NCBI GenBank assembly: GCA_028277845.1
Contig: JANQFL010000087.1
Coordinates: 13,704 to 77,703, forward strand
DNA from: Sneathiellales bacterium
GTDB taxonomy: Bacteria; Pseudomonadota; Alphaproteobacteria; JANQFL01
DNA: 64,000 nt
Direction of reading: 5' to 3'
Shown here: in pieces, positions 1,287-21,835 of the stretch
Layout: every line of letters begins with the position of its first letter
How positions within the stretch are numbered: the stretch's first letter is position 1
The notes under the pieces: model-generated
Databases searched by the model: none
Seen by the model: only the letters and a program-made list of their open reading frames with translations
What the model was told of the DNA's origin: nothing
Position numbers and translations under genes: made by a program

Positions 1287-1316
1287 GCAACGTGTTCCGG
1301 ATTCTTGTGGGCATCG

Positions 1317-3478: not shown

Positions 3479-3492
3479 GGTTATTGCAATGC

Positions 3493-4464: not shown

Positions 4465-4474
4465 TGTTCAGATC

Positions 4475-5350
4475 CTAGTCGTCCAGTTCATAGCCGACGG
4501 CACGGATCTCGGCCGCGAGTTCTTGTTCGATCAGCCGGCGTTGGTGCGCGTTTAAAGTCTGTTTCCAGCGATACAGCGGCGATTCACTCACCGTGGTCAT
4601 ATTGTCGTAAGACGAATTGGCGGCGATAGGTTTCCCCAACCGAGACGGTTGCAGAACGCAGGGATCGAAATCGATGCCGATGAAGTCGCACAGGCTGCGC
4701 ATGGTCTTTTCGGTATCTTGTACCAAATCCTCGTAACGCAGGCCGTAGGCGTTCGGCTCGGGAGAGATCCAGAACCGGTTGGCCACATTGCGCCACAGGC
4801 CGCAGAAATCAACGAGTTCATTGTCATCGAACGGCCGGTTGCGGGTCTTTTCGCGCAGTTTGGTGTGGCTGGCAAACGTGGCGCGCGGATCGCGGATCGA
4901 CACCACATACTTGGCCGGGCCGAAGATCTTCTCGACATAGGGAGTCGGCCGCTTGCAGATATTGGCGATATGATTGACCGTCACACCGCGCCGGGGATGG
5001 CCGCAGAACGACGGGAAATAGATCTCCTGAAATAAATCATAGAACTCTTGCAAATTGCGTACCGGTCCAACCCGGCGGCCCACTTTCTCGGTCAACTGTC
5101 CATATGCGCCTTCGCCGTGGATCATTGTAATCATGTCCTCGAGGCGCTGGTGAAAACCGGCCTCGCGCAGTTTTAGGCTTCGCGGCAGATAACGGTAGAG
5201 AGCGAAATAGGGCTGCTTGATTTCGTTTTTGTTGCAGGTATTCCAGTATTCGAACGGGAAGACGTTGCATGCGGGATGACCGTCCAGCAGATTGTTGGTC
5301 AACGTGCCGCCGGAGCGGGACATGGACACGATGGAGACGTTGGTGTTCAC
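4475..5350 (-). CDS. sulfotransferase (PAPS-dependent type)
   Basis: N-terminal 5'-PSB-like motif SMSRSGGT and 3'-PB-like SIRDPRA; 291 aa. Confidence 0.7.
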   Translation of the reverse strand: MNTNVSIVSMSRSGGTLTNNLLDGHPACNVFPFEYWNTCNKNEIKQPYFALYRYLPRSLKLREAGFHQRLEDMITMIHGEGAYGQLTEKVGRRVGPVRNLQEFYDLFQEIYFPSFCGHPRRGVTVNHIANICKRPTPYVEKIFGPAKYVVSIRDPRATFASHTKLREKTRNRPFDDNELVDFCGLWRNVANRFWISPEPNAYGLRYEDLVQDTEKTMRSLCDFIGIDFDPCVLQPSRLGKPIAANSSYDNMTTVSESPLYRWKQTLNAHQRRLIEQELAAEIRAVGYELDD

Positions 5351-5402
5351 GTTGCGCAGTACCTAACTTGGTCGAAATGTTGAGTCCGGTTTGACCGGCG
5401 GC

Positions 5403-6776
5403 TCAGGCCGCCTGTTCGGCGACGGTGTCGTCGATCACGTCGACCAGACTCTCACCGTATTCCTTGCCGGTGTCGGCGACGAAATAGCGCGATTCGTCGC
5501 GCAGGCGGTCGGCGACGCACGGGTCGCCGATTTGCGCGATGAGCTCTCCGAACCGCGCCGGGAAATCGTCCTGAGCATCGCATTTAAGGATGCTGGTCTT
5601 GGCGATGAAGTCGTTGAAGTGCACCAGACCGAGATTGTGGTCGTTCGATTGGTTGGAGAGCGGATAGAACATCATCGCCGGCTTGCCGTTGAGCACCGAT
5701 TCAAGCAATACCGTGGAGAGTGGCGACACCACCGCCGAGGCGAGACGCAACAGCCGGTTCATGACATTGTAGTCGGCCAGATACATCGAAGACTTACCGT
5801 CGACGATGCGCTGGCGGTAAAAATCGGCCATGGATGGGTCCATGCTGATATGTTTCCACGGCACGGCAAAGAAGTCTTGTTCCTCGATTCCCAGGCCACG
5901 CCGCCACGGATGCGGTCGGTAAACGACATGAACGTCGGGCGCCTCGCCGCTCTCGATCATGTCGTCCATCATCTTCAGGTAGACGGTTTCGTAGTTGCCC
6001 GAACCGTTGCCGGCATAGAGCACAATACGTTTGCCGTCCGGCACGCCGAACTCGTCGCGCAGGGCCCGCTCGGAGGTATCGGTGGGGCGCCGGTAGACCT
6101 GGAACTGGGCGGCGCCAATCGCGCGCACCCGGTCACCGGCTATCCCCATATACTCGGTCGCCAGGTTCTTGCTGTGCTCGCCCCACACCACCAGGCGGTC
6201 GGGATAGCCCGACGACATGGCCTTGGCCGACGGATTGTCCCACGAGTTCATCAGGGCGATGAACGGGATCTTCCGCCGCTGGCAGATCTGCAGCAGGTCG
6301 TTCATGAAATAACCGCCGAGGACCGACGGATGAACGATGACATCCGGTTGGTGCCGGGCGATGAATTCGTCGAGGGGTTGGTGTGTGCCCATATAGCGGG
6401 TATAGGCGAAGCGGAAAAATGGAAAGACGAAAGGCAAGGCCAGGATGTCGAGGATACGGGTGCGTTTCTCGCCGATGGCGTTGACGACGTAGTTGCGCCG
6501 CGGCTCGTAGTTTCGCTTACCCCTCTGCAGGCGGAGCGCGTTGATCGTCACCAGCCACCACCACATGCCCATGCGCTTGCGCGGTACTTCGACGGTTTCC
6601 ATCTGGGCCAGGCCGAGGGTTGCCGGATCGGTATAGACGCCTTTTTTCTCCGACGTGGTGTCGCTGTGAAACACGTAGGTGACGTCGTAGCGCCGTTCCA
6701 ACGCCTGGAACGCGCCGCTGTGCACGAAATTGCGCACGACGGCATCCATGTCGATGAAGACGAGAGCCTTTTTCAC
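5403..6776 (-). CDS. hypothetical protein, capsule-synthesis/TagF-like fold with RPHP motif; possible (nonulosonic) sugar or glycerophosphate transferase
   Basis: 457 aa ORF with protein-like composition; VVYRPHP motif recalls the KPHP motif of KpsC/KpsS/TagF-type transferases. Family assignment is tentative. Confidence 0.45.
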   Translation of the reverse strand: MKKALVFIDMDAVVRNFVHSGAFQALERRYDVTYVFHSDTTSEKKGVYTDPATLGLAQMETVEVPRKRMGMWWWLVTINALRLQRGKRNYEPRRNYVVNAIGEKRTRILDILALPFVFPFFRFAYTRYMGTHQPLDEFIARHQPDVIVHPSVLGGYFMNDLLQICQRRKIPFIALMNSWDNPSAKAMSSGYPDRLVVWGEHSKNLATEYMGIAGDRVRAIGAAQFQVYRRPTDTSERALRDEFGVPDGKRIVLYAGNGSGNYETVYLKMMDDMIESGEAPDVHVVYRPHPWRRGLGIEEQDFFAVPWKHISMDPSMADFYRQRIVDGKSSMYLADYNVMNRLLRLASAVVSPLSTVLLESVLNGKPAMMFYPLSNQSNDHNLGLVHFNDFIAKTSILKCDAQDDFPARFGELIAQIGDPCVADRLRDESRYFVADTGKEYGESLVDVIDDTVAEQAA

Positions 6777-6820
6777 GATCGGAGTGCGGTGTTGGGCGCC
6801 GGGGCGAAGCGTACCGGGCT

Positions 6821-8950
6821 CTAGACGAATTCGTTGAGGCCGGTCAGGCCGCGGTCGCCGCTGTGCAGGTCCTGGCCGTCGGGCGGCGGCACCAGGTGGC
6901 GGGCCTCGCCGGCATATTCGGGAATGCGGTAGAGGCGGCGAACGTAGATCTTCGACAGGATACGGCCGATGCCGATGACCGAATCGCCGTAGATTTCGAG
7001 AAAGTCGCGGGCGGTTTTCTTCTGTTCGTCGGTCAGATCGAATGAGATATCCGCCGGTTCGGCGAAGCGATAGTCGGCCACGTCGCGCGGCTGCAGGTCA
7101 TCGCTGAAGCGGATGACATCGAATTTGAATGCGCCGCTGGTCGAGGCGTCCAGATTATCGAACAAATGGCTCGCCCGCAGCCTGCCGAACTCGATCAGCT
7201 CGCGGCCCAATTCGATCGCCGCGGCGTCGACGCCCTTGTCGGTGAAATAATCGGTCAGCGTCTTGGTCGCGACCTCGGCCACCTCGTCGACCAAACGGAT
7301 CAGGCCGAGGGTCTTGTATTTGAAGATCAGGTTGGCGCCCAATTCGCCGTCGATATAGCGTTTGACCGTGTCGCGCTGGCGCACGAAGTCTTCCAGATCC
7401 TCGCGTTCGCCCCAAAGCTCCGCCTTGGTTTCGGCGAGGAAATCGGCGATCAGTTGATCGAAGCGGTCATTGCCGCGGAACGCCCAGATCCTTTCGATCC
7501 ATTCGTATTTCGAAAGGCTGAGCAGCTTGATCAGCCGCAGCACCTCCTTGTAGACGGCGTCGTTGTAAAACAGGTTGACGACCAGGTGCATGTGGCGGGC
7601 GCTGAGATATTCGTCGAAAGTGATGGCGTCGTTGCCGACGCAGATTTCCTCTACCTCAGCGGCGTTGATTGCCTCGCCGAGTACGTCGAAATAGCCGTAG
7701 CAGCGCGGCAGGACGCGATACCGATTGACCATCTTCCACTTGTCGACGCTTTCGCGCGTCGCCAGGTCGGTACCCGGCAGCAGCATCAGTTGAAACAGCG
7801 CCACGGTGTTGAAGTCGGCCTCGACGATGGTCCGTATGGTTTTCAGGTGCGCCTGCAGGCTGTCTCCCGGCAGACCGAGGATGATCTCGGAATAGCTGTT
7901 GGCGCCGATTTCGCTCGCCGCCAGGGCCAGGTCGAGAATTTCCTGCTCGTCGATGTTGTTGCGTTCGATGTTTTCCAGAACGTCCTTGTCGAGGCTCTGC
8001 ACCGATCCTGAAATGCGCAGCGAACCGCTGATGATGTTGGCGGCCTCAAGCACCCGGTGTTTTTGGTTCTTGCCGGTGGCGACGTTGATGTATTCGGGAA
8101 AACCGTACGTCTTCTGCACTTCGGCGATGGCGCGGCAGGTGTCGAGATCCTCCTTGTACATGCCGAAATTGGAGTCGGCGATGAACATGTCGGAGCGGGC
8201 CCGGCCGTTGCGGCGCAGTTCGGCCATGCGTGCGCCGATCAGGTTCATCTCGTCGCGCACCCGGTCGGTCTTGCCCTTGGCAACCTTGGAATAGTACTTG
8301 GTGCCCTCGACACAGAAGGTGCAGCGGAATGGACAGCCCCGGTTGGTCTGGATGATCGGCAGCATGACACCGTCGAAAAACTCGTCCATCAGCCCCTGAA
8401 GATAGGGTGACGGGATATCGGACAGATCGAGGCGCGGGGTGGTTTCCTGCGGTCCGTCGAAGCCGCCGTCCGCCATCAGGCGATGCACCGACGGCAAGCC
8501 GTGCGGTACGCCGCCCGGATCGAAGGCGCACGCCTCCAGCCGCTCGACGAGGTCGGCGAAGGCCGCCTCGCCCTCCTTGACGATGAAGAAATCGAACATG
8601 GGGTGGGCGCGGACGAATTCTTCCTGCTCGGCCGGATTTGTCGGATAGTTGGGGCCGCCGAACACGGTCACCACGCCAGGCAGCCTGCGCTTGATGACTG
8701 CCGCGAACTGGCTGCTCAGGTCCCGGTTCCAGATATAGTTGGAAAACCCGATCACCGCCGGTGCCGGTTCGTTGTCCAGGGCCGTGGCCAGCTTTTCCGG
8801 AAATTTGAACAGCCGGAATTGCGGCGGGTTAGGCCGCCTGCTGGCGGTATAACTGGCGATGCAGCCGATCGCCGCCGGCATGACGTCGGACGCAACGGTC
8901 TGCTGTGTATAGGTCAGGTCACATAGCCAGATCGACGGGGCTTCGGTCAA
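6821..8950 (-). CDS. B12-binding domain radical SAM protein
   Basis: CxxxCxxC motif NRGCPFRCTFC at 8312..8335. Start set at in-frame TTG 8950 preceded by GGAG 8 nt upstream; the ORF-track ATG at 9061 would overlap sqdB by 79 nt. A GTG at 9010 is an alternative. Confidence 0.7.
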   Translation of the reverse strand: MTEAPSIWLCDLTYTQQTVASDVMPAAIGCIASYTASRRPNPPQFRLFKFPEKLATALDNEPAPAVIGFSNYIWNRDLSSQFAAVIKRRLPGVVTVFGGPNYPTNPAEQEEFVRAHPMFDFFIVKEGEAAFADLVERLEACAFDPGGVPHGLPSVHRLMADGGFDGPQETTPRLDLSDIPSPYLQGLMDEFFDGVMLPIIQTNRGCPFRCTFCVEGTKYYSKVAKGKTDRVRDEMNLIGARMAELRRNGRARSDMFIADSNFGMYKEDLDTCRAIAEVQKTYGFPEYINVATGKNQKHRVLEAANIISGSLRISGSVQSLDKDVLENIERNNIDEQEILDLALAASEIGANSYSEIILGLPGDSLQAHLKTIRTIVEADFNTVALFQLMLLPGTDLATRESVDKWKMVNRYRVLPRCYGYFDVLGEAINAAEVEEICVGNDAITFDEYLSARHMHLVVNLFYNDAVYKEVLRLIKLLSLSKYEWIERIWAFRGNDRFDQLIADFLAETKAELWGEREDLEDFVRQRDTVKRYIDGELGANLIFKYKTLGLIRLVDEVAEVATKTLTDYFTDKGVDAAAIELGRELIEFGRLRASHLFDNLDASTSGAFKFDVIRFSDDLQPRDVADYRFAEPADISFDLTDEQKKTARDFLEIYGDSVIGIGRILSKIYVRRLYRIPEYAGEARHLVPPPDGQDLHSGDRGLTGLNEFV

Positions 8951-8982
8951 GTCATCTGCTCCACGCTGCAAGGCCGATCGGT

Positions 8983-10149
8983 CTATCGATCCGCTTTCTC
9001 GGACGACCACTGGATCCGTGGGTTCATCACGTTCCGGTCCACGAAGTCTACATGCCGGCATACCGTTTGGTACATGGCGTCCAACACGGCTTCCGTTAGA
9101 AGGTTAGGGCGCAATCCGAGATCGACAAGTTTCGAGTGCTTTGCGTTGTAGTAATGATCCTCCAATTCCACCCGGGGATTCTCCAGGTGGTCGATCTGTG
9201 TATCCTGCCCGTTGCGCTTCGCGGCAGCGACCACCATTTCGGCCAGTTGCAGGACCGAGAACTGTTCGGTGAACTGGTTGAAGACACGGAAATCGCCGCG
9301 ATCGGCCGGATTGTCGACCGCCAGGGCGACGCACTGGATGGTGTCCTTGATATTGAGGAAACCGCGCGTCTGGCCACCCTTGCCGTAAACCGTCAGGGGG
9401 CATCCGATCGCCGCCTGGACCAGAAATCGGTTCAGAACCGTGCCGAACACATCGTCGTAATGGAACGACGTCTCCAGGTCGGGGTGCAGCACGGTCTGAT
9501 CCGTCTCGATACCGTAAACGACTCCCTGGTTGAGGTCGGTCGCCCGCATGTCCCAAATCCGGCAGGTGAATTCGATATTGGCCGAATCGTGCACCTTGGA
9601 CAGGTGGTAAAAACTGCCGGGACGCTTGGGGAACAGGACCCGGTCCTTGCGGCCGTTGTGTTCCAGCTCCAGCCAGCCTTCCTCGATATCGATGTTCGGC
9701 GTGCCGTACTCGCCCATGGTGCCCAGCTTCACCAAATGTGCGTCCGGGCAATGAGCCCGCATGGCGAACAGGACGTTCATCGTGCCTTCGATATTGTTTG
9801 TCTGGGTGTAGACCGCGGTCGTTCTGTCCTGCATCGAATAGGGGGCGGAGGGCTGCTCGCCGTAGTGCACGATGGCGTCGGGCTTGAATTCCCGGATCAC
9901 CTTGTAGACGAAGCGATGGTTACACAGATCCCCGACCATCAGCGCGATGTCGTTACCGCTGATTTCCTTCCAGCGCCGGACGCGCCGGTGCAACGGTGGA
10001 ATGGCCGCCAGCGGCTCGATGCCTTCCTCCAACTCCCATTGCCGTTTGGCGAAATTGTCGACGATGGCAACCTCGTCGCCGCGGGCGGAGAAATGCATGG
10101 CCGTCGGCCAGCCCAGATAACCATCACCACCAAGAACCAATACACGCAT
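8983..10149 (-). CDS. sqdB: UDP-sulfoquinovose synthase (SqdB/SQD1 family)
   Basis: Long blocks match SQD1 as I recall it: GGDGYLGWPTAMH, VKLGTMGEYGTPNIDIEEG, FYHLSKVHDS, RATDLNQGVVYG, LTVYGKGGQTRGFL, FRVFNQFTEQFSV, HYYNAKH. Confidence 0.85.
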   Translation of the reverse strand: MRVLVLGGDGYLGWPTAMHFSARGDEVAIVDNFAKRQWELEEGIEPLAAIPPLHRRVRRWKEISGNDIALMVGDLCNHRFVYKVIREFKPDAIVHYGEQPSAPYSMQDRTTAVYTQTNNIEGTMNVLFAMRAHCPDAHLVKLGTMGEYGTPNIDIEEGWLELEHNGRKDRVLFPKRPGSFYHLSKVHDSANIEFTCRIWDMRATDLNQGVVYGIETDQTVLHPDLETSFHYDDVFGTVLNRFLVQAAIGCPLTVYGKGGQTRGFLNIKDTIQCVALAVDNPADRGDFRVFNQFTEQFSVLQLAEMVVAAAKRNGQDTQIDHLENPRVELEDHYYNAKHSKLVDLGLRPNLLTEAVLDAMYQTVCRHVDFVDRNVMNPRIQWSSEKADR

Positions 10150-10197
10150 GACCTGTCTCTGCTTTTCGTGAAGTTGTTGAGTCTGAAAGCGCCGGAT

Positions 10198-10932
10198 CTA
10201 AAGTCGGGATCCGTCACTCATGTGAGGGAGTTCGATGGCGCCGCTCGACAGCAGCGCCTCCGCAATCGGGAGGTCTTCGGGACCGTCTAGGTCGAGGCCA
10301 TAGCGCGAGTCAATGCCAATTCCCGCGCAGGGCTCCGCATAAAACCCCGATCCATCGCGCAAGGCGTCCGTCCGCGCCGCGATCAGATTGCCGAACACCA
10401 TCAGTTTCGGCTTGTTCTGTTTCAGCCGTGCGCTGCCGCGTTCCTCGGCAAACAGAAAGCCGACCCGGCCGTCGGCATCCAGCTGCCTCTGGTTCCAGGC
10501 GTGGCTGTTGTGTGCCACGGCGATGACGTTGTGGGCCGATCGTGCCGCGCCGTCGCGTTCGAACACGCCCAGCAGTTCCTCGACATGGACGGGCAGAAGA
10601 AACGGCGATGTCGGTTGAATCAGCACGATGACGTCGGGCAGCGTTTCGCCCTGGCCGGCCGCGCGTTCGAGATATTCCCGCACTACGTCGTCGACCTTGA
10701 CCGCGTCGCCGCCCAGGTCGTCGGGCCGCCGATCCACGTCCACCCCGAGCGCTATTGCCCGTTGGGCGATGCGGTCGCTGTCCGTCGAGCAGACGATGCG
10801 GTCGAGGCGCCCGGAGGCGATCGCCGCCGTGATGCCGTAATCGAGCAGCGGCCGGCCGGCGACGGACACCAGGTTTTTCAACGGAATGCTTTTCGATCCG
10901 CCCCGCGCCGGGACGAAACCCCAGGCGTTCAT
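10198..10932 (-). CDS. acylneuraminate cytidylyltransferase family (CMP-nonulosonate synthetase, NeuA/LegF/PseF-like)
   Basis: N-terminal PARGGSKSIPLKN motif typical of CMP-NeuAc/CMP-Kdo-type cytidylyltransferases; start overlaps upstream stop (ATGA). Confidence 0.75.
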   Translation of the reverse strand: MNAWGFVPARGGSKSIPLKNLVSVAGRPLLDYGITAAIASGRLDRIVCSTDSDRIAQRAIALGVDVDRRPDDLGGDAVKVDDVVREYLERAAGQGETLPDVIVLIQPTSPFLLPVHVEELLGVFERDGAARSAHNVIAVAHNSHAWNQRQLDADGRVGFLFAEERGSARLKQNKPKLMVFGNLIAARTDALRDGSGFYAEPCAGIGIDSRYGLDLDGPEDLPIAEALLSSGAIELPHMSDGSRL

Positions 10933-11888
10933 CGGCCGGACTCCCTCGCCAGTGCGCGCAACGCCTTGTCGATGACGAAGGCTTCGGTCTCGCTCCAGGC
11001 GTCGTGGGTCGAACCGCCGATATGCGGCGTCAGGATCAGATTGTCGTGTTCCCGGGCATAGACGGCGACGCGGCTGTCACCGAACGACTGGGCAAAATCG
11101 GTGCGGTATTCGCCGTCGATGGTATCGAGGGCGGCGGCCTGGAGATGGCCCGATTCCAGCAGGTCGAGCAAGGCGTCCAGGTCCAGGAGTTCGCCGCGGG
11201 CCGTGTTGACCACCACGGCGCCCCGGGGCAGCGCCTCCAGCACGGCGCGCGAAACGAGGTTGCGGGTTCCGTCGTTGGCCGGTGCGTGCAGGGACAGGAC
11301 ATCGGAGCCGGCGGCCAGGGCTTCGATTGTGTCCACGCCGCCGTCGACGTAGGGATCGTAGTAGGCCGTCTTCATACCGATGGCTTCGGCGATGCGGGCG
11401 ACCTTGCGGCCCAGCCGGCCATAGCCGACAAGGCCCAGGCGCATACGGGACAACATGCGCGGCGCACCCCACGGCCGCCGGTTCCAGGCACCACTGGCCG
11501 CCGCCGCGTGAGCCGCCGGAATCCGCCGCCAGGCCGCCATCATCAGGCCGATGGCGTGTTCCGCCGTCGGTGTGATGCCGTCGAGAAACTCGGGCTCGTC
11601 GTGCAGGGCGCACACCGCGATATGTCTGCTCGCGGCGGCCTGGGCATCGATATGGGGAATGCCCGTGGTGTTGGACACGACCGCGCGCAGGCGTGGGCAG
11701 CGATCCATCTTGTCCGCGTCCACGGCAAATCCCAGGGGCGCGAACAGCACTTCGGTTTCGGCCAACATGTCCGCCGTGTCGTCGCGCGGGTCATCCAACG
11801 CCGTCAGGTCGAAACAGTCCCGAAGCCGGGCCAGGTTCTCGGGCTGGTAGCTCATGATGCGGTAATAGAGGGCGCGGGGACGGGGCAT
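10929..11888 (-). CDS. D-isomer-specific 2-hydroxyacid dehydrogenase family
   Basis: NAD-binding GLVGYGRLGRKVA and C-terminal catalytic region (LILTPHIGGST). Start set at Met 58 of the ORF (11888) to avoid overlap with the upstream gene; Met 69 (11855) is an alternative. Confidence 0.7.
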   Translation of the reverse strand: MPRPRALYYRIMSYQPENLARLRDCFDLTALDDPRDDTADMLAETEVLFAPLGFAVDADKMDRCPRLRAVVSNTTGIPHIDAQAAASRHIAVCALHDEPEFLDGITPTAEHAIGLMMAAWRRIPAAHAAAASGAWNRRPWGAPRMLSRMRLGLVGYGRLGRKVARIAEAIGMKTAYYDPYVDGGVDTIEALAAGSDVLSLHAPANDGTRNLVSRAVLEALPRGAVVVNTARGELLDLDALLDLLESGHLQAAALDTIDGEYRTDFAQSFGDSRVAVYAREHDNLILTPHIGGSTHDAWSETEAFVIDKALRALARESGR

Positions 11889-11895
11889 CGCGGAG

Positions 11896-13050
11896 TCAGT
11901 AGGCCAGGGTCTTGTCGACCGGTGGCAAAGGCGCGGCAAGGCATGCGGCAATCTGTTCGCCCGCGCGGCCGTCGCCGTAAACCGTATCGGAGGGATAGAC
12001 GCCGTGCGCGATCTGGCGCCGGGTTGCGGCGACGATCTCGTCGGTGTCGTGGCCGACATTGACGACGTTGCCGCCCTGCTGGCGGCCGCGCTGGCGGTTG
12101 CCGATATTGACCACCGGGACTCCGAGGAACGCGCTTTCGCGAATGCCGCTCGACGTGTTGCCGACCAGGCATACCGCGTTCTTGATCAACGCCGCATAAC
12201 GTACGAAGTTCAGCCCCGAAATCGTCCGCACCGGCGGGGCATCGCCGTTCGATTGCAGGGCACTTAAAGGGCCGGCCACCGATTGGGCGCCGGCGTCGTC
12301 GTTGGGCAGCACCCAGATAGTGGGAATGTTCAACTCCACCACGGCATCGGCGGTGTGCGTGAACTGGCGCCGGGCATCGTCGTATTCCGTCACGACGGGA
12401 TGCTGCGACACCACCAGGTATTCCGCCGTCAGATCGACCGCGGCGCCGTTGCCGTTGTCGGTCAAACACCGGTCCAAATCATCACCGGCGGCCAAGTCGA
12501 GACCGGCGAGCTGATCCAGACTCGGCGTGCCGACGACGTGCACGGTGTCGGCAATCTCGCCCAGGCGGATCAGCCGGTCGGCCGCGTCCCTGTTGGCCGG
12601 AAAATGAATGTGGGCCAATTTGGTGATGGCGTGCCGGATGCGTTCGTCGATGGAACCCGAAACCTCGCCGCCCTCCAGATGGGCGATGACGGTATTGCGG
12701 CACATCGCCGCCTGGGCGATCGACAGGCATTCGTACCGGTCGGCGATGACCATCACCACGTCGGGATCGAGCTCGGTCAGAATTCGGCCGAATGCGATCG
12801 TGCAACGGCCGGCCGACTCGACGACCGAGTCGAGCGTCTGCCCAGCGGCGATATAGTCCAGGGTGCGGTCGATGGTGAAACCATCCCATTCGATAACTTC
12901 GACAAAGGAGTCGTAGTCTTGCCCGAGCAGGATACCGCCCACGACCAACTGCAGGGACAAATCGGGGTGGCGCTGAATGGCCGCCATGGTCGATTTCATC
13001 TTGCCGTAATTGCCCCGCGTGGTCAGGACGATGCAGATGCGGCGACTCAC
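11896..13050 (-). CDS. UDP-N-acetylglucosamine 2-epimerase (hydrolysing), NeuC/LegG-like
   Basis: 384 aa; motifs IADRYECLSIAQAA and HLEGGEVSGSIDE typical of the UDP-GlcNAc 2-epimerase family. Confidence 0.75.
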   Translation of the reverse strand: MSRRICIVLTTRGNYGKMKSTMAAIQRHPDLSLQLVVGGILLGQDYDSFVEVIEWDGFTIDRTLDYIAAGQTLDSVVESAGRCTIAFGRILTELDPDVVMVIADRYECLSIAQAAMCRNTVIAHLEGGEVSGSIDERIRHAITKLAHIHFPANRDAADRLIRLGEIADTVHVVGTPSLDQLAGLDLAAGDDLDRCLTDNGNGAAVDLTAEYLVVSQHPVVTEYDDARRQFTHTADAVVELNIPTIWVLPNDDAGAQSVAGPLSALQSNGDAPPVRTISGLNFVRYAALIKNAVCLVGNTSSGIRESAFLGVPVVNIGNRQRGRQQGGNVVNVGHDTDEIVAATRRQIAHGVYPSDTVYGDGRAGEQIAACLAAPLPPVDKTLAY

Positions 13051-14081
13051 GGTTCGAGAACCTCCCAGGTCAGCGGCGCGTCTGCGGCGACCGGTTGCTT
13101 GAGGCGCTTGCCGATCACATCGGCCAGATCACCGGGCGAGATCCCGGTGCCGGGCCGTTTGGCGGCGACATCGGTTTCGGCGATCACGTGACCGGCCGGC
13201 AGATCGTTGCGGGCAACCAGGGATTTCAGCGCCCATTCCATGCCCGGCCGCTCGCTGGCCGCCGGTTCCTTGCGGCCATGCCCGAGCATGGTCTCGACCC
13301 GTCGGATATCGGCCACCAATTGCGGCAGATCCTCGGGGCCGGCCGAGACCTTCCAGTCCTGGGCATTGGGCACGTCGCGCAGAATGGTGATGTGCTTCTC
13401 GATGATCTGGGCGCCGCGGGCGACCGCCGCAAGCACGGCCAAACCGTCTTCCGTGTGATCGGAATAACCGACCGGGCCGGGGAACGCCGTGCGTATATGG
13501 TCCATCGCACTCAGATTGACATCGGCCGGCGGTGCCGGATAGCTGGTGACACAATGCAGCAGGGCGATATCGGCGCATCCGGCGTACAGGCAGGCGTTCG
13601 TCGCTTCGGCGATATCGTCCAGGCCGTACATGCCGGTCGAGATGATCATCGGTTTGCCAAGCGCCGCCAGACGGGCCAGGAAGGCTGGATTGCCGCGCTC
13701 GCCCGAGCCGACCTTGACCGCCGGCACATCCAGGGTTTCGAGCCACGGGATACGGGTCTCGTCATGGGCGGTCGCCATGAACAACAGCCCGCGGGCTTCG
13801 CAGCGTTCTTTCAGTTCGACCGCCTGATCCAAGGTCAGGTTGCGCGGCCGCAACCGGTCCTGCCAGTCGGCGGCCCGGTTGGAGATCAGTGCCTCGACGT
13901 CGAAAAACTGGGTCTTGAAGACATCCGCGTTGGCATCGGCCGCCAGGTCCACCAGGTCACGGGCCAAGCCCATGTCGCCGAAATGGGCGACGCCGGCTTC
14001 GGCGATGAACAGGCAGGGTGCGTCACCGCCGACCCGGCGATCGCCGATGCGGAACGAAGACACCGGCTGAAGGCTGTTCAT
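13047..14081 (-). CDS. N-acetylneuraminate synthase family (NeuB/LegI/PseI-like nonulosonic acid synthase)
   Basis: Start at internal Met (MNSLQPV) giving ATGA overlap with the upstream ABC gene stop; NeuB-like TIM-barrel region plus C-terminal SAF-like domain. Confidence 0.8.
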   Translation of the reverse strand: MNSLQPVSSFRIGDRRVGGDAPCLFIAEAGVAHFGDMGLARDLVDLAADANADVFKTQFFDVEALISNRAADWQDRLRPRNLTLDQAVELKERCEARGLLFMATAHDETRIPWLETLDVPAVKVGSGERGNPAFLARLAALGKPMIISTGMYGLDDIAEATNACLYAGCADIALLHCVTSYPAPPADVNLSAMDHIRTAFPGPVGYSDHTEDGLAVLAAVARGAQIIEKHITILRDVPNAQDWKVSAGPEDLPQLVADIRRVETMLGHGRKEPAASERPGMEWALKSLVARNDLPAGHVIAETDVAAKRPGTGISPGDLADVIGKRLKQPVAADAPLTWEVLEP

Positions 14082-15925
14082 GAGGACCCGCCCTGGCCCG
14101 TGGCGGCCACCGGGGGCTGCTGCGCGAGGGCATGAAACAGCTCGGTCGACCGGTACAGCGACTGATAGGTGCCCTGTGCCGCCAGGCGGCCGTCTTCGAG
14201 GACGAAAATGGTATCGCACTCGGCGATGGTGGAAATGCGGTGGGCGACGGTGATGGTGGTCACTTCGCCTTTCAGTTTGGCCACCGTATCCTGGATCAGT
14301 TTTTCGGTGCCGGTGTCGAGCGAACTTGTCGCCTCGTCCAGCACAAGGATATCGGGCGCGTCATACAGCGCCCGGGCAATGGTGACGCGCTGGCGCTGAC
14401 CGCCGGAAAGCCGCAGGCCGCGGTCTCCCATCACCGTGTCGAGGCCGTCATCCAACTCGGCGACCACGTCGGTCAAGCCGGCCTTGTCGAGGGCGCGGCG
14501 TACCTTGTCGTTGTCGATGTCGGCGTCGGGCACGCCAAAGGCGACATTGCGCCGCAGTGTATCGTTGGCGATGAACGGCGACTGAGGCACATAGCCAATT
14601 CGGCCGAACCAGTTCGATCGGGCGAAGTCGGTGATGTCCGTGTCATCCAAACGCACGTGACCGTCGGTCGGCGGCAAAACACCGAGCAGGATGTCGACGA
14701 ACGTCGACTTGCCCGCGCCCGATGGGCCGACCACGCCGACCGATTGACCGCGGGCTATCGCCAGGGAAATGCGATCGAGCGCGGTGGCGGTCGTGCCCGG
14801 GTAGGAAAAACTGACGGCATCGAAGTGGATGGCCGACCACTCGTCCGGTACCTTGGCGCCACCACTGGGCTTCCCCCATTCCGTTTCCGCCGCCGCCAGT
14901 TCGGCGCGCAAGTCGGCGAGTCCCCTGGTATAGGCCCTGACCTTGGCCAGTTTCGTGATGGTACCGACAACACGGGACAGGGCAGGGATAAGACGGGCGC
15001 TGATCAATCCCAGCAAAGCGACCTGCGAGGCGATTTCGCCGGTGCTGGCACCGGCACCGAACAGGGACACCGCGACGATGATCAGTCCGAGCTGGCCGGT
15101 CAACAGCAGCCCCATCGGCACGGCCCGTTGCAGCAGTTGCGCCTTCATACGGCTTGTGGCGGCCCTGTGATAGAGACGTGTGTACATGCTGGTGAAGAAC
15201 CCTTGACGGGCCTTGACCTGGATATCCTTGATGCCGTTGACCGCCTCGACGCCAAGCTGGCTGCAATGCAGCCATTGGGTCCGTTCGTCGGCGGCGTAGC
15301 GGGCGATGCGTGGGCGAATGACCGCCATCATCATGACGGCGGCGAAGGCGATAATCGCGGCGACGGCAACGATCGCCTGCCACGGCAAGGCAACCGCCAC
15401 CACCGCAAAGGCAAAGACAAGCAGCAGCGAGGTGTACACCAGCTCCATGACCGTCGGATACAGCGACACCGCCGTGTTGGTCGGATCTTTGTAGAGCCGA
15501 TGGGACAGCATCGCCGCATTCTGGCGCAGGAACCAGACATAGGGTGCCTTGAGGCAGCGATTGAGCAGGTCGTTGGCCAGATAACGCCCGATACGGACAC
15601 TGAGGATTTCGGTCATGAACAGCGAGAAATAGCTGCCGATAACGCCCAGAACCAGCAGGCTCGCGGCGATAAGGCCGAGCATCTGGATCAACTCCCGTTC
15701 CGTGTCGGTCGCCAGGATATCGGCGATCTTTTGCAGCCATTCGCTGCGCTGAAGCATGGTCGGTTCGACCACCAGCGTCACGAAAGGCGCCGCCGAGGAT
15801 AGGGCGACCATTTCCAGGGCGCTGGTGAACACGAACAGCAGCAGGATCGCAGCCGCGGCAGTCTTCTGCCGGGCCGTCAGGAACGACCAGCCGATGGCGA
15901 CGATATTGGTTGACGGTTTCGTCAT
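14078..15925 (-). CDS. ABC transporter, fused permease/ATP-binding exporter
   Basis: N-terminal hydrophobic helices; Walker A GPSGAGKST, signature LSGGQRQR, Walker B ILVLDEATS. Start at Met 21 (MTKPSTNIV) avoids overlap with the upstream gene. Confidence 0.85.
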   Translation of the reverse strand: MTKPSTNIVAIGWSFLTARQKTAAAAILLLFVFTSALEMVALSSAAPFVTLVVEPTMLQRSEWLQKIADILATDTERELIQMLGLIAASLLVLGVIGSYFSLFMTEILSVRIGRYLANDLLNRCLKAPYVWFLRQNAAMLSHRLYKDPTNTAVSLYPTVMELVYTSLLLVFAFAVVAVALPWQAIVAVAAIIAFAAVMMMAVIRPRIARYAADERTQWLHCSQLGVEAVNGIKDIQVKARQGFFTSMYTRLYHRAATSRMKAQLLQRAVPMGLLLTGQLGLIIVAVSLFGAGASTGEIASQVALLGLISARLIPALSRVVGTITKLAKVRAYTRGLADLRAELAAAETEWGKPSGGAKVPDEWSAIHFDAVSFSYPGTTATALDRISLAIARGQSVGVVGPSGAGKSTFVDILLGVLPPTDGHVRLDDTDITDFARSNWFGRIGYVPQSPFIANDTLRRNVAFGVPDADIDNDKVRRALDKAGLTDVVAELDDGLDTVMGDRGLRLSGGQRQRVTIARALYDAPDILVLDEATSSLDTGTEKLIQDTVAKLKGEVTTITVAHRISTIAECDTIFVLEDGRLAAQGTYQSLYRSTELFHALAQQPPVAATGQGGSS

Positions 15926-15950
15926 GGATTCAGTTTGGAGTTCGCCCGCC

Positions 15951-17654
15951 TCAATAATCGGCGATGAACTTGTAGCTGTCCGCACGGTCCATCTTGTAGG
16001 AATGGTAGTGCATCCGGTCGGAATGGAACCAGCCGTGCAGCAGATCGGTTTCCTGTTGCAGCGGGGCGGGATTGTCGCTCACGACCTTCCGGTAATCCTC
16101 ATACAGGGCGAAGATCGCCGAATCGTCGCCGGTGACGAAACTGTCCTGCCAATCGGGATGGCAGAAGAACCAACCGGCAAAGACCTTGGCGCTCTCCCGT
16201 GTCTTGGCCAGATCCAGGTCGTTCCACCAGGGCCGTTTGAGGCAATCGATGTATTCTTCGCGGGATCGGCACCAGGTGCCGACGCCGCAATCGTGGAACC
16301 AACCGCGGTCCGCCATCAACGACGGCTTGCCGAGATACGCGTATTCGATGGCGGCGGTGCCGGTACAGGTGATGACGGCGTCGACGCAGTCCATCACCGC
16401 CCGGCCGTTCCAGCCCTGGGGCGCTATCTGGACATGGCCGGCCATGCGCTCGCCGATATAGTCGGCCAACGACGCGCCGCCGTACCACAGATCGCAGGGG
16501 TGGGGCTTGAACAGCCAGTAGACGTCGGTGTTTTGCTTGGCGATATCGACCGTCAGGGAAATCCAGTCGAGATAGTCTGTGAAGTTGTTGAGCCCGAACA
16601 CGTGCGGATAGTCGAACCAGTTGGAGGCATAGACGCCGACGATGGGCTTGTCCTCGGTCCAGCCGAAGCGCTGGCGCAATTGCTCCCGGTCGATGTGGTC
16701 GTTGGCGTTGATGTAGGCATACAAGGTGCCCAGATCCAACGTCTTGCCGTTGAGGCGGTTGTCCAGGTACGAGCCGCCGACCTCGGACAGGGACCCCAGC
16801 TGTTGCGGGCTCAGGTTTCGGGCGTGTTCGACCGGCAGGCGGTCGACCCAATCGAAGATGGCTTCGCGCGAGCGGATCTTCCAGTATCGCGGCACGCCGT
16901 AGCAACCGTACAGCACCACCGCCGGAATACCGAGCGATAGGGCGACATAAGCCAGCGCGCCATAACGGAACTCGATGACATGGCTGAGGATCAGCAGGGA
17001 CGTGCGTTCGGCCGACAATATGCGTTCGGCGGCGTCGATGCTCAGCAAGGCTTCGGCGACGTGGTCCTCCAGTTTCGGGTCCGCCATGTCGATGGTGCCG
17101 AGGCGGCGACGCTTGAGAATGCCGTCATAGACCCAGCCGCCGGGAAAGCCGTGCGGCAGGTCCCATTCCATCATGTCTTCCGGACGATCGGTCATATCCA
17201 GAAGCTGTCGTGCCCGGCGGCGGGCGTCCTTGAGGCCGGAACGGAAGTGTTTTTCAAACCGCACCGTGTCATTGATGCCGAGACGGTTCATGGTCTCCTT
17301 GGCCTCGCGGGTGCGCCACTTGCCGACGATGCCGACCTCGTTGGCGGTCGGCAGCCCGAGGGCCTTGCGCAACAAGGTCAGGCGCCACCAGTAGTTCGGA
17401 TTGAACCACATGCCGTCGATCAGCACCCGGTCCGGGAACGTCTTGTCCGTCGACTCGGCGATCTGCCGGAACAGATTCTCCGCCGGAATTCGCTGGCGTT
17501 GAATCTCCTGCCAGCGCGCCCGTTCGGACGGTGTGATTCGGCGGCGCAGCATTTGGCCCTGGGCGTAAAGGTGCTTCGCCGCGGTTAACATGCGCGAAGA
17601 GGCCTTCGACAAGGGCGACGGACGGGTATTTGATTCTGAGGTGGAAACGGTCAT
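15951..17654 (-). CDS. capsule-polysaccharide-biosynthesis-like protein (KpsC/KpsS/LpsZ-like fold with KPHP motif); candidate glycosyltransferase
   Basis: 567 aa with WLFKPHP motif. Family assignment tentative; start could also be Met 22 (17591). Confidence 0.45.
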   Translation of the reverse strand: MTVSTSESNTRPSPLSKASSRMLTAAKHLYAQGQMLRRRITPSERARWQEIQRQRIPAENLFRQIAESTDKTFPDRVLIDGMWFNPNYWWRLTLLRKALGLPTANEVGIVGKWRTREAKETMNRLGINDTVRFEKHFRSGLKDARRRARQLLDMTDRPEDMMEWDLPHGFPGGWVYDGILKRRRLGTIDMADPKLEDHVAEALLSIDAAERILSAERTSLLILSHVIEFRYGALAYVALSLGIPAVVLYGCYGVPRYWKIRSREAIFDWVDRLPVEHARNLSPQQLGSLSEVGGSYLDNRLNGKTLDLGTLYAYINANDHIDREQLRQRFGWTEDKPIVGVYASNWFDYPHVFGLNNFTDYLDWISLTVDIAKQNTDVYWLFKPHPCDLWYGGASLADYIGERMAGHVQIAPQGWNGRAVMDCVDAVITCTGTAAIEYAYLGKPSLMADRGWFHDCGVGTWCRSREEYIDCLKRPWWNDLDLAKTRESAKVFAGWFFCHPDWQDSFVTGDDSAIFALYEDYRKVVSDNPAPLQQETDLLHGWFHSDRMHYHSYKMDRADSYKFIADY

Positions 17655-17687
17655 AGCTGCGTTAAGTATCGGCGCCGGTCGGGGCGG

Positions 17688-18617
17688 TTAGACTTCATAT
17701 CCCAACGACGTCAGATCGTGGTCGAACATGGTGGCCAGCTTGCGGTTCGATTCGCGCCATTTCTCCCGCGCCCAATCGGGGACATGCCGGTCCACTTGCG
17801 CCAACGTCGTATCGCGCTTGTTGGGAAAACGCGATGACAATAGGCGCGCCGCCTGGCGGGCCCGCAGATGAGCCGAAAACGGCAATATGCCGGCCTCGTT
17901 GTGCTGGGTCTGGCAGAACCGGTTGGCAAACCGGTACAAACCACGCCACGGTTCGGAGAACGACACATTGACCGGTTCCTGACGCGGTTCGAAGTCCGGG
18001 TCGACACCGATGAATTCAAAGATGTCGCGGAAAAACCGGGTCCGATTGGCCTTGAGGTCCTCGAAGAACAGCACCTTGAAGTTTTCGCGGCCGAACTTCT
18101 CCTGGGCATAGGCGACGTAGCGGTCGTAGCACAGCTTCTCGAAGATATTGAGATGGCCGGTGCGCTCGAAATTACCACGCGGAATGTTCATGCTGATGGC
18201 CGGCGACGCGTGCTCGGACAGGAAGCCCTTCACATCGAGTACGCCGCCTTCCATGACATAGGCGTTCCAGGCCGAGCGCACGTAGGATTTCTGTTCGCGC
18301 AGGACGATGAACGCCTTGACGCCCGGCATAAGGTCGCTCAGCAGGTCGATGATCATGCGCGCACCGGCGCCGTCGAAGGCATGACCCGACATCGCTTCGG
18401 CGCTGAACACGGATTTCTTTGCCGCCGGCTTGGCATTCGAGAACGGCATGGCCCGCAGCTTGTCGAGGAACGCCGCACGGTCGAATTCAAAGGAATAGTC
18501 CCGCAATTCGAAGAACAGCCCCTTGTGATCGCGCCAGGAAAAATTGATCTCCGGATGCGCGTCCATGGCCACCATCTGCAGGTACGACGATCCCGTCTTG
18601 GGCAGGCCAAGATGCAA
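17688..18617 (-). CDS. sulfotransferase (second copy, different family from 4475..5350)
   Basis: PAPS-binding-like LHLGLPKTGSSYLQ motif. The ORF-track N-terminus overlaps the upstream gene by ~200 nt and is Arg/Ser/Pro-rich, so a non-ATG start near 18617-18656 is inferred (TTG at 18617 chosen; CTG at 18632 or 18656 possible). Confidence 0.55.
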   Translation of the reverse strand: MHLGLPKTGSSYLQMVAMDAHPEINFSWRDHKGLFFELRDYSFEFDRAAFLDKLRAMPFSNAKPAAKKSVFSAEAMSGHAFDGAGARMIIDLLSDLMPGVKAFIVLREQKSYVRSAWNAYVMEGGVLDVKGFLSEHASPAISMNIPRGNFERTGHLNIFEKLCYDRYVAYAQEKFGRENFKVLFFEDLKANRTRFFRDIFEFIGVDPDFEPRQEPVNVSFSEPWRGLYRFANRFCQTQHNEAGILPFSAHLRARQAARLLSSRFPNKRDTTLAQVDRHVPDWAREKWRESNRKLATMFDHDLTSLGYEV

Positions 18618-18657
18618 GACGTCGAACGGCAGGGCGTTATCCGATCGGCTAGGCAGG

Positions 18658-19365
18658 TTATTGGGCAACGGTGTTCTGCTCCAAGGTCGATGACTTGAGC
18701 GCGCCGATGACCTCGTGCGCGCTCGCCGTGGCCCAGGACGGGCCCAGTGTATCCATGATGCGGTGGGCGCGTTCCAGATCCTCCACGGTATCGACGGAGA
18801 CGTTTTGCTGCGACAGGTCTTCATCGAGGCAAACATTTTCAATGCGAAACGCATCGGTGTAACGGTACATGTGGCGGGTCAGGTGTTCGCGGTCTTCCGG
18901 GTCGTCGCTGGCGGCAATGGCGCGCTGCAGCGCCTGTGTCTGGATCACTTCGACGGTCATGCCGACGGGAAAGGAACGGGGAAACGCATTCGTCGCCAGG
19001 TCTGCACCGGTGTTCTGCTGCAAATCCCGCAACTGTGTCATCACATCGATCGGCACGAACGGACTGTCGCCGGTCACACGGATAAACGTCTCCAGGCCAT
19101 GTAATTGCGCACATGCCAGCGCCCGGCCGGCAACATCATCGCACGATCCACGAAACACGCCGACCTGTTCGTTATCCGCCAGTTCCGCAATGGCGTCGTC
19201 GACCGGTCGGTCCGAGGTGGCGACGAAAATCGGCAGCGCGGGGTGCAAGGCGCGCAACCGTTCGAGCACCCGGCTCAACAACGGTTTTCCGGCCAGGGCG
19301 ATGAGGGCCTTGCCCGGCAGGCGCACCGAGTCGAAGCGGGAAAAGACGAGAATTCCGGCGGTCAT
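18658..19365 (-). CDS. cytidylyltransferase, SpsF/PseF-like (CTP_transf_3 type)
   Basis: Start at internal Met (MTAGILVFSRFDSVRLPGKAL), the characteristic N-terminus of this family; the upstream 104 codons of the ORF are low-complexity. Confidence 0.7.
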   Translation of the reverse strand: MTAGILVFSRFDSVRLPGKALIALAGKPLLSRVLERLRALHPALPIFVATSDRPVDDAIAELADNEQVGVFRGSCDDVAGRALACAQLHGLETFIRVTGDSPFVPIDVMTQLRDLQQNTGADLATNAFPRSFPVGMTVEVIQTQALQRAIAASDDPEDREHLTRHMYRYTDAFRIENVCLDEDLSQQNVSVDTVEDLERAHRIMDTLGPSWATASAHEVIGALKSSTLEQNTVAQ

Positions 19366-19369
19366 GGCG

Positions 19370-20437
19370 TCATGCGTTCGACAGTTGGTCCCACGTTTCC
19401 TTGTACCACTGGCAGTACCGCAGATAGCCGTCCTCGAGTGACCAATTCGGCTCGAAGCCCAGTTCGGTTTGGGCGCGTTCCACCGACAATGTGCCGCGGA
19501 TCGGCTTGTCCTTGGCACGCGGGCGTTCCTCCAGGATGACGTTGGGGACGACCTGCTGCACGACCGATGCAAGTTCGGCGATGGTGCGCGCGCTGCCGCG
19601 CGTGATGTTGAAGGTCTGCGACGCCGGTTTGCCGGGATGGAATGCCAAGGCTCGGATGATTCCCTGTACCAGGTCATCGATATAGGTGAAGTCCAGACGG
19701 CCGTCCCCGCCGCCTTCCAGCAGCAATGGCTTGCCGGTCATGGCGTTCTCGATGAAGATTTGGCTGACCCTGCGGCTGACGCAACGTTCGCCATACAGGG
19801 CGCTGGGGCGGATGATCGACGTGCCGATACCGTGTTGGTGGTTGTAGGTGCGGACCAGCCGTTCAGCCATATATTTGGTGTTGGCGTAGATGCCGCGCGG
19901 CCGCGGACGGGTGCTTTCGTTGACGCTGTCGCCCTCGAAGTCGCCATACACCGTGCTCGAACTCATCAGCATGACAAGATCGACGGGCGCCGCTTCCATG
20001 CGCACCAGTTCGAGCACGTTGCGCAGGGTGATCAGCTGCAAATCGAAACACAGGCCGGGGTCCTTGCGGGCCTGAACGGCGCTGGCGATCGCCGACAGAT
20101 GCACCACCTTGGTCGGCTGGTAGTCATGGAACCAACGCATCAGTTCGACCGGGTCGCGGGCGTCGGCGTTGCACAGTTGGATACCCGCGTCCTTCATCAT
20201 GGCGAACCGCGTCAGCAGGAAGTGCCGGTAGATCCGGCTTTCCAGCGGATCGGTCCGGGCTCCGTAAACGCTGTCGACCAGGCTATTGACCATGAGATTG
20301 TCGAGAACCATGACATCTATGCCCAATCGCCGCAGCTCAAGCGCCAGGTGGTGGCCGATGAAGCCTGCACCGCCGACCAACATGACACGGTCGTTTTCCA
20401 GTTTCTTGGGTACGGCGGCGTAGGAGAGGTCAGTCAT
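19370..20437 (-). CDS. NAD-dependent epimerase/dehydratase (extended SDR); first gene of the glycan island
   Basis: Rossmann motif LVGGAGFIGHHL and catalytic YANTK; AAAGGA-like RBS about 10 nt upstream of the ATG. Confidence 0.8.
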   Translation of the reverse strand: MTDLSYAAVPKKLENDRVMLVGGAGFIGHHLALELRRLGIDVMVLDNLMVNSLVDSVYGARTDPLESRIYRHFLLTRFAMMKDAGIQLCNADARDPVELMRWFHDYQPTKVVHLSAIASAVQARKDPGLCFDLQLITLRNVLELVRMEAAPVDLVMLMSSSTVYGDFEGDSVNESTRPRPRGIYANTKYMAERLVRTYNHQHGIGTSIIRPSALYGERCVSRRVSQIFIENAMTGKPLLLEGGGDGRLDFTYIDDLVQGIIRALAFHPGKPASQTFNITRGSARTIAELASVVQQVVPNVILEERPRAKDKPIRGTLSVERAQTELGFEPNWSLEDGYLRYCQWYKETWDQLSNA

Positions 20438-20467
20438 ACGTTACATCCTTTCAACTTGTCGCGATGC

Positions 20468-20742
20468 TCTGGAGCAATTCCTCTTTAGATGGAATCCATT
20501 CTGTTTCTCGAGCGGCCTGCCCATCCACCAGGAAGACGGGGCCGCGCGATGCCGGGCATCGCGCAAGCCGTCTAACGCCGTGGGGGGCGGCCGCTCGGAA
20601 ACCCGGAGGGACGGGCGTATTGGTGCCAAATCCGGCGGCTGCCGTCTCGGCCATACCCCCGGTATGGCCGTCACCGCCAGCCTTGGCCTTGGCACCAATA
20701 CGCCCGTCAGAATGTTTCCATCTAAAGAGGAATTGCTCTAGG
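20468..20742. repeat. large nested imperfect palindrome in the divergent intergenic region
   Basis: Outer arms 20468-20503 and 20708-20742 (core GAGCAATTCCTCTTTAGATGGAA / TTCCATCTAAAGAGGAATTGCTC, perfect 23 bp). Inner arms GACGGGCGTATTGGTGCCAA 20610-20629 / reverse complement 20689-20708. Central hairpin GGCCATACC-CCC-GGTATGGCC 20649-20669. Left arm carries ~105 bp extra with its own palindrome CGCGATGCCGGGCATCGCG. Confidence 0.75.
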
Positions 20743-21832: not shown

Positions 21833-21835
21833 TCC

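Follow-up and report, generated by a model that had tools for sequence, protein, structure and literature searches.

We analysed a window of 64,000 nucleotides from a Sneathiellales bacterium (GenBank assembly GCA_028277845.1, contig JANQFL010000087.1). Its left part carries a co-directional glycan cluster on the minus strand (1..20437), cut at its left end by the window edge. Two genes of this cluster, here called P1 and P2, are the subject of this work. Both encode proteins with an x-P-H-P motif, as an earlier reading of the bare sequence (the original prediction) had noticed: WLFKPHP lies in the minus-strand open frame 15951..17654 (P1, 567 amino acids, aa) and VVYRPHP in 5403..6776 on the same strand (P2, 457 aa). 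The likely P1 gene begins at 17591, because the database copy (P0001) and the family alignment both begin 21 codons downstream in frame. It covers 15951..17591 and encodes 546 aa, the version to which P1 residue numbers refer. P1 is a KpsC-like glycosyltransferase (GT) of the GT-B type, and P2 is a canonical GT-B transferase. They represent two distantly related, uncharacterised families in the HP-motif GT-B group. This group includes enzymes with cytidine-nucleotide donors: KpsC, KpsS, WbbB, KpsS1, bacterial sialyltransferases, the Tannerella transferase for pseudaminic or legionaminic acid (Pse or Leg), and TagF-like enzymes. P1 and P2 are the best candidates for attaching the cluster's cytidine monophosphate (CMP)-activated acidic sugars to a cell-surface glycan.

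The HP motif is conserved in both families

The P1 HP motif, K362-P-H364-P365, lies at 16497..16508 (motif coordinates are all on the minus strand). Two further P1 elements stand out. One is the loop Y321-A-S-N-W-F-D327 (16611..16631), the putative counterpart of the KpsC QXXXD motif, with D327 as candidate nucleophile. The other is Y155-D156-G157 (17121..17129), with D156 as candidate general base. An alignment of 74 P1-family sequences, the most distant at 21% identity, shows no variation at D156, H364 and E416, and conservation of at least 90% at Y155, S203, H204, W325, D327, P329 and P365. Within the N-terminal domain, D156 alone among acidic residues is invariant in this alignment, and it does not vary in either the first or the broader P1 alignment (A1 and A3).

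In P2 the HP motif reads R287-P-H289-P-W-R292 (5901..5918), and all six residues are invariant across 50 P2-family sequences. The same holds for S354-T355, E359, V197-W198-G199 and G221-A-A-Q-F225. In the loop N177-S-W-D180-N-P182 of the N-domain (6231..6248), N177, S178, D180 and N181 are invariant, D180 being a candidate general base.

Homology between P1 and P2 extends across about 220 residues, and their HP motifs are in register (BLASTP E 9e-6). Profile–profile comparison with hhalign gave 95.9% probability and E 5.5e-9. Both alignments place an 8-residue deletion in P2 right at the P1 W-F-D loop. The P2 HP motif also aligns with the 'KMHP' of TarL, a teichoic-acid polymerase, as that of P1 does with the 'KVHP' of KpsC, in keeping with the resemblance to KpsC and TagF-like enzymes that the motifs had first called to mind. 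Bacterial sialyltransferases share a motif pair, D/E-D/E-G plus HP, that Freiberger reportedly described in 2007. Both of our proteins conserve the HP part. Neither has a strict D/E-D/E-G: P1 reads Y155-D156-G157, and a direct reading of the P2 sequence shows no equivalent.

P1 and P2 fall below curated family thresholds

Scans of P1 against Pfam and NCBIfam at E <= 10 returned nothing but a spurious Ssr4 match, and single-sequence PDB searches with P1 and P2 were empty. P2 gave sub-threshold matches to BFO_1060_trans, TIGR04396, Glyco_transf_4 and Glyphos_transf. Its match to NCBIfam BFO_1060_trans spans residues 137-264 and scores 36.1 bits (E 3.9e-9), where the curated cut-off is 200 bits. 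This model was matched below threshold by 46 of the 50 P2-family members (best 1.3e-14) and 27 of the 74 P1-family members, and TIGR04396 was matched by 20/50 in the P2 family. Against Pfam Glyphos_transf (PF04464), P2 scored 13.9 bits, below the gathering threshold of 22.1; weak matches, every one below threshold, were found for 18/50 P2-family and 4/50 P1-family members. Pfam Capsule_synth (PF05159) did not match P1 itself at E <= 10, but 26/50 P1-family members matched weakly (best 7.4e-7), as did 3/50 P2-family members at about E 0.06. The Maf/MptE-like family (DUF115, PF01973) had zero matches to either protein or to any family member scanned, and we dropped this identity. Of the families that the original prediction named for a profile search, Capsule_synth and Glyphos_transf show weak, family-level similarity, with nothing above threshold, and Maf/DUF115 shows none.

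No curated family threshold is reached by either P1 or P2, and for that reason we place them in none of GT107, Capsule_synth, BFO_1060 and Glyphos_transf. Their identity to any solved structure is 10-17%. The 113 close homologues of P1 are nearly all labelled 'hypothetical', a few having a precomputed Capsule_synth match, and plasmid tblastn searches gave no useful annotated homologue. An exhaustive profile search found 594 representative (50%-identity) P1 proteins at E <= 1e-30, a number that rises to 2720 with the limit set at E <= 1e-10. For P2 the homologues number more than 999.

Predicted folds and the KpsC comparison

AlphaFold2 models built from the family alignments had predicted local distance difference test (pLDDT) scores of 94.5 for P1 and 93.7 for P2. 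Both are GT-B folds, with two Rossmann-like domains and a nucleotide-binding C-domain, and the P1 model agrees with a modified GT-B fold resembling that of KpsC and WbbB. When Foldseek matches to P1 were ranked by E-value, uridine diphosphate (UDP)-N-acetylglucosamine 2-epimerases and ordinary GT-Bs came out on top. When they were ranked by TM-score, KpsC entries were best (0.45-0.50, target-normalised).

The first P1 profile (A1) matched KpsC at an E of only about 0.6. With A3, the broader alignment from the exhaustive representative search, the four best PDB matches were all KpsC, with E. coli KpsC-N at E 0.0014. This alignment sets P1 'vvyasnWfD' on KpsC 'LVVDQTFND' (D327 on D160), 'lfKpHP' on 'WVKVHP', 'GTaGlE' on 'QYGFE' and 'gkpvLvAdrgwYsdwg' on 'GKPVTCFGQPWYASWG'. 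D327 and H364 of P1, about 37 residues apart, thus stand at the positions of the KpsC nucleophile and HP histidine. An Asp aligned with that of QXXXD is kept in the P1 family, where the stretch reads S-N-W-F-D327, and the Gln is not conserved. In KpsC, the QXXXD Asp (D160) is the nucleophile that forms a covalent adduct with 3-deoxy-D-manno-octulosonate (Kdo); in KpsC and WbbB, the His protonates the CMP phosphate and an N-domain Glu, Glu66 of KpsC, is the base (PMC10148158). In KrkA and KpsS1 the base belongs to a 'YE' motif.

The surrounding gene cluster

All cluster genes lie on the minus strand. The first, a short-chain dehydrogenase/reductase (SDR, 355 aa), is followed by a CTP_transf_3 cytidylyltransferase (CT235, 18658..19365), which lies upstream of P1. 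Between the two is a sulfotransferase-like gene (17688..18668; weak match, about 1e-3). Directly downstream of P1 comes an ATP-binding cassette (ABC) exporter in which the transmembrane and nucleotide-binding domains are fused (14078..15925; Pfam ABC_membrane + ABC_tran). It is HepA/MsbA/PglK-like, scoring 300, 286 and 242 bits against these NCBIfam models, each below its own cut-off. Next are a NeuB-like nonulosonate synthase (13047..14081; Pfam NeuB + SAF; TIGR03569 298 bits, below cut-off) and the hydrolysing 2-epimerase NeuC (11896..13050; TIGR03568 347 bits, above the 236 cut-off). A D-2-hydroxyacid dehydrogenase of phosphoglycerate/glycerate type (10929..11888) separates NeuC from a second CTP_transf_3 cytidylyltransferase (CT244, 10198..10932), a NeuA/PseF-like CMP-nonulosonate synthetase. 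The dehydrogenase, of which 67-72% identical copies occur in two other loci (L002, L017), could serve to provide or alter an acyl substituent, for example a glyceroyl group.

The second half of the cluster opens with an SQD1-like (UDP-sulfoquinovose-synthase-like) SDR of 388 aa (8983..10149; full-length match to NCBIfam NF041015, E 4e-139, 464 bits, cut-off 575). A B12-binding radical S-adenosylmethionine (SAM) methyltransferase, KedN5-like (C-methyltransferase, 3e-42), lies directly upstream of P2 (6821..8950) and suggests C-methylation of a sugar. Its relatives include a 719-aa gene (B12-binding + Radical_SAM) two genes upstream of the P2 homologue in locus L048, and a 49%-identical tblastn match in L017. 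After P2 come a sulfotransferase (4475..5350; Sulfotransfer_3, 7e-19), an SDR (3493..4464), a GT4 (2342..3478), a GT4-like GT (1317..2342), a methyltransferase (486..1286) and a GT4 cut by the window edge (1..489). The two sulfotransferase-type genes imply a sulfated glycan, beyond any sulfonate, and the sulfotransferases and methyltransferases of the cluster could modify this glycan.

An overlapping metagenome contig shows that the cluster continues past the left edge with two GT4 genes and a GT-C gene. The latter, at the cluster end, encodes a multi-pass GT-C membrane glycosyltransferase (L047 11495-12826; PMT_2 34.5 bits, above the 26.1 cut-off). It implies a periplasmic step with a polyprenyl-phosphate-linked donor and is a clue to the acceptor. 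At the other end, two long minus-strand open frames, 21218-23500 and 20451-21263 (760 and 270 aa), were considered as leading genes of the cluster and rejected as antisense artefacts, typical of high-GC DNA. The true genes there are on the plus strand: a thioesterase (20778-21197), rplM (21368-21832), rpsI (21836-22336) and argC (22433-23494). The cluster therefore starts at 20437.

The window thus holds one NeuB and two CTP_transf_3 cytidylyltransferases. Elsewhere the numbers differ: locus L045 has up to three or four cytidylyltransferases, and other loci have two NeuB genes. Judging from their N-terminal motifs, CT235 ('SxRLPGK') is probably SpsF-like, SpsF being a CMP-Leg synthetase, and CT244 probably NeuA/PseF-like. 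We considered whether CT235 could be a CMP-Kdo synthetase of the KpsU kind, in which case P1 would be a Kdo transferase. This is not favoured, its KdsB match being weak (57 against a 255-bit cut-off) and its N-terminal motif looking SpsF-like. With NeuB, NeuC and two cytidylyltransferases present, the claim that the locus makes CMP-activated acidic sugars stands.

The rest of the window is housekeeping: PhaC, an OmpA-like protein, homoserine dehydrogenase, GlpX, RecJ, a CO-dehydrogenase-type cluster and Mrp/Nuo-like subunits. Between 56000 and 60000 an AT skew of +0.23-0.27 is explained by minus-strand genes for hydrophobic Mrp/NuoL-like membrane subunits. There are no flagellar genes within the 64-kb window, and flagellin glycosylation was rejected as a context on this ground.

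Conservation of the neighbourhood

We next looked at P1 in other genomes. A scan of one genome per species gave 40 P1 loci, nearly all from metagenome-assembled genomes (MAGs) and one, L041, from a cultured strain, Thalassospira sp. MCCC 1A01148. The loci are spread over Alpha-, Beta-, Gamma- and Deltaproteobacteria, Nitrospirota, Methylomirabilota, Binatia, Elusimicrobia, Verrucomicrobiota, Acidobacteriota, Planctomycetota, Leptospirales and Bdellovibrionota. Neighbours were counted in those 25 loci whose flanks reached 12 kb or more. A CTP_transf_3 cytidylyltransferase is present in 25/25, a NeuB-like gene in 24/25, an ABC exporter in 18/25 and a P2 homologue in 15/25. In at least 12 loci the ABC gene comes next downstream of P1, and a cytidylyltransferase gene directly adjoins P1 in about 14. 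The same module appears in the gene tables of independent contigs.

P1 occurs with at least two types of NeuB. One is 65-71% identical to the NeuB of the window and always accompanied by the SQD1-like gene; the others are 30-39% identical. Since it accompanies several NeuB types, P1 is not tied to one nonulosonate. P2-type clusters also exist without P1, once next to LptE and LptD. In that locus (L048 13261-17841, on a 4.45-Mb contig), NeuB, the B12 radical-SAM gene, the SQD1-like gene, P2, NeuC, a cytidylyltransferase and the ABC gene are present with no P1 within 10 kb, and an LptE-like gene and LptD follow directly. This hints that the exporter and glycan may be related to lipopolysaccharide in some lineages.

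Candidate transferases for CMP-activated acidic sugars

We favour, with moderate confidence, the reading of P1 and P2 as glycosyltransferases that depend on CMP-ulosonic acids; for any specific donor, stereochemistry or acceptor our confidence is much lower. The proposal that they are nonulosonate transferases is supported computationally: the P1 profile leads to KpsC, the P2 family to BFO_1060, and the genes are linked to NeuB and CMP-sugar synthetases. A bare PHP string is weak evidence: six-frame translation of the window contains PHP 20 times and [KR]PHP 8 times. The HP motif rises above chance here because it is conserved within both families. One precedent weighs against the proposal: SpsB of B. 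subtilis, a TagB-like HP-motif neighbour of a Leg pathway, was not needed for Leg transfer (PMC7439481).

The SpsB case lends weight to a rival in which P1 and P2 are conventional GT-Bs acting on UDP-, guanosine diphosphate- or deoxythymidine diphosphate-sugars (for example UDP-sulfoquinovose or hexoses). The HP motif would then be a feature of the lineage, and another enzyme would transfer the nonulosonate. We consider this unlikely. The cluster already has at least four or five GT4/GT1-type enzymes for such nucleotide sugars, but no other candidate for CMP-sugar transfer was seen in it (no GT38, GT42, GT52, GT80, Maf or FlmG-like gene). The sole specific sequence-level relatives, KpsC and BFO_1060, are both CMP-dependent, and the association with NeuB and cytidylyltransferase genes is near universal.

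A second rival, which we also regard as improbable, holds that P1, P2 or both are TagF/TagB-like phosphotransferases. They would use a cytidine diphosphate (CDP)-activated polyol-phosphate or sugar-phosphate donor to build a teichoic-acid-like or phosphodiester-linked polymer. Structural similarity and the weak Pfam similarity speak for it, but a Pfam and NCBIfam survey of the cluster genes found no TagD/TarI/TarJ-type genes for CDP-glycerol or CDP-ribitol. For both cytidylyltransferases the best match is CTP_transf_3, a type (KdsB/NeuA/SpsF) whose products are CMP-ulosonic acids. Every Glyphos_transf score is sub-threshold, the broad P1 profile prefers KpsC, and the P2 family matches BFO_1060 more often than Glyphos_transf (46/50 against 18/50).

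A third rival would make P2, or less likely P1, a NeuC/PseG-type GT-B (hydrolysing epimerase or nucleotide-sugar hydrolase) of the nonulosonate pathway instead of a transferase. We think it very unlikely: Pfam Epimerase_2 is matched by no member of either family at E <= 0.1, the cluster already has a bona fide NeuC that scores above its curated cut-off, and the sequence-level relatives are transferases.

A proposed pathway and mechanism

In the pathway that we propose for P1 and P2 as CMP-ulosonic-acid transferases, NeuC, NeuB and the two cytidylyltransferases would produce a CMP-activated nonulosonic acid. P1 and P2 would add it to a growing glycan at the cytoplasmic face of the membrane; alternatively, the donor of P1 may be a second CMP-ulosonic acid. 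Flipping of the finished acidic glycan would fall to the ABC exporter beside P1; in the periplasm the glycan would then be passed on, perhaps by the GT-C enzyme at the end of the cluster. The terminal GT-C suggests that a lipid-linked intermediate is used there. The close pairing of P1 with the ABC gene recalls KpsC/KpsS with KpsMT and the WbbB Kdo cap with Wzm/Wzt. By this analogy, it suggests that P1 makes a residue, a primer or a cap, that couples synthesis to export.

For P1, the placement of Asp327, His364 and Glu416 at KpsC positions suggests a retaining double displacement like that of KpsC, WbbB and KpsS1. Asp327 would be the nucleophile and form an Asp-sugar adduct, with overall retention of configuration. 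His364 is predicted, again by analogy, to act as the acid that contacts and protonates the CMP phosphate. The 'YE' base that KrkA and KpsS1 use makes Asp156 a plausible base here, and Glu416, which aligns with the conserved Glu in KpsC 'GFE', is taken as a nucleotide contact. P2 lacks the Asp loop but has the HP histidine, the Ser/Thr pair and the Glu. This pattern suggests an inverting single displacement of the kind proposed for sialyltransferases and TagF, in which Asp180 may be the base.

A sulfoquinovose-synthase-like gene at the locus

The most unusual feature of the locus is the SQD1-like gene, rather than P1 or P2. Copies 70-77% identical to it occur in seven other loci (L002, L003, L007, L017, L026, L030 and L041), and in Nitrospirota, alphaproteobacterial MAGs and Thalassospira it is kept as a neighbour of NeuB, NeuC and the CMP-synthetase gene. 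The cluster in the window has no aminotransferase or acetyltransferase gene. Together with the conserved SQD1-like gene, this makes a C-sulfonated nonulosonate conceivable, made from a UDP-sulfo-hexose through NeuC and then NeuB. A sulfonated nonulosonate at this locus is speculation on our part. Our literature search found no paper linking sulfoquinovose synthase with nonulosonic acid.

All of these suggestions can be joined into one reading, which we think quite unlikely as a whole. P1 and P2 would found two new GT families for an undescribed nonulosonic acid. The SQD1-like gene, kept between the CMP-synthetase gene and P2, would supply a 6-sulfo-6-deoxy-hexose, from which NeuC and NeuB would make a 9-sulfo-9-deoxy nonulosonate, a C-sulfonated analogue of sialic acid. 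P1 would transfer this sugar, or a second ulosonic acid, through a KpsC-like covalent Asp adduct and give the rare retained anomer, and the adjacent MsbA/PglK-like exporter would recognise its product as primer or cap. Such a system would be spread widely among uncultured environmental phyla.

To our knowledge, few bacterial nonulosonic-acid transferases are known, for example Maf, FlmG, KpsS1 (GT118), the Tannerella TagB-like enzymes and some promiscuous sialyltransferases. If our favoured reading is true, P1 and P2 would give glycobiologists new candidate transferases for sialic-acid-like sugars. P1 would be a testable second example of Asp-adduct chemistry outside Kdo transferases. The two families would also help account for the nonulosonate-containing surface glycans reported from environmental bacteria. 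The P1 family has no Pfam or NCBIfam model, yet its 594 representatives spread over many phyla, and the P2 family is larger still. Nothing found here contradicts current understanding.

Comparison with known systems

The GT-B sialyltransferases (GT38 polysialyltransferase, GT52 and GT80) have no sequence-level match to P1 or P2, and their D/E-D/E-G motif is not conserved here (YDG in P1, none in P2). The TagF/TarL/TagB CDP-polyol phosphotransferases and the TagF-like capsule polymerases Bcs3 and Cps3D are likewise set apart, by sub-threshold Glyphos_transf scores throughout and by a locus with no CDP-polyol genes. The catalytic His of the TagF-family 'W-H-G' would presumably correspond to W198-G199 of P2, which has no His there.

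Closer to P2 are the Tannerella forsythia proteins Tanf_01245 and TFUB4_00887 of the BFO_1060 family, which share with it the HP motif, the GT-B fold, a length of about 450 aa and a nearby CMP-nonulosonate pathway. These are TagB-like proteins with an HP motif, and BFO_1060 is their orthologue in strain FDC 92A2 (PMC5420450). Strains in which these genes are deleted lose the terminal Pse or Leg derivative of the Tannerella O-glycan and regain it on complementation (PMC5420450). P2 differs in that its score is far under the cut-off (36 against 200 bits) and covers part of the N-domain alone, and in having no D/E-D/E-G. The Tannerella enzymes serve general protein O-glycosylation in Bacteroidota, whereas the P2 pathway here ends in an ABC exporter and a GT-C.

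The nearest relative of P1 is KpsC, the GT107 retaining beta-Kdo transferase of the group 2 capsule linker, whose kin are WbbB-GT99, KpsS, KpsS1-GT118 and KrkA-GT140. Recently characterised, deeply divergent KpsC-like enzymes each have a CAZy family of their own (GT99, GT107, GT118 and GT140), and a divergence comparable to that of P1 and P2 gave KpsS1 and KrkA the new families GT118 and GT140. P1 is only 10-13% identical to KpsC. It exceeds KpsC by about 220 residues and has a helical hairpin at the N-terminus, a helical insertion near residues 240-315 and a helical domain at the C-terminus. It has Ser in place of the QXXXD Gln, and by analogy its base may be Asp156 instead of the KpsC Glu. 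Its partner exporter is a fused MsbA/PglK-type half-transporter and not KpsMT, with no KpsE or KpsD seen, and its context suggests a nonulosonate, not necessarily Kdo. In our reading, P1 and P2 work like the KpsC, BFO_1060 and TagF-type families, yet form separate and deeply divergent families of their own.

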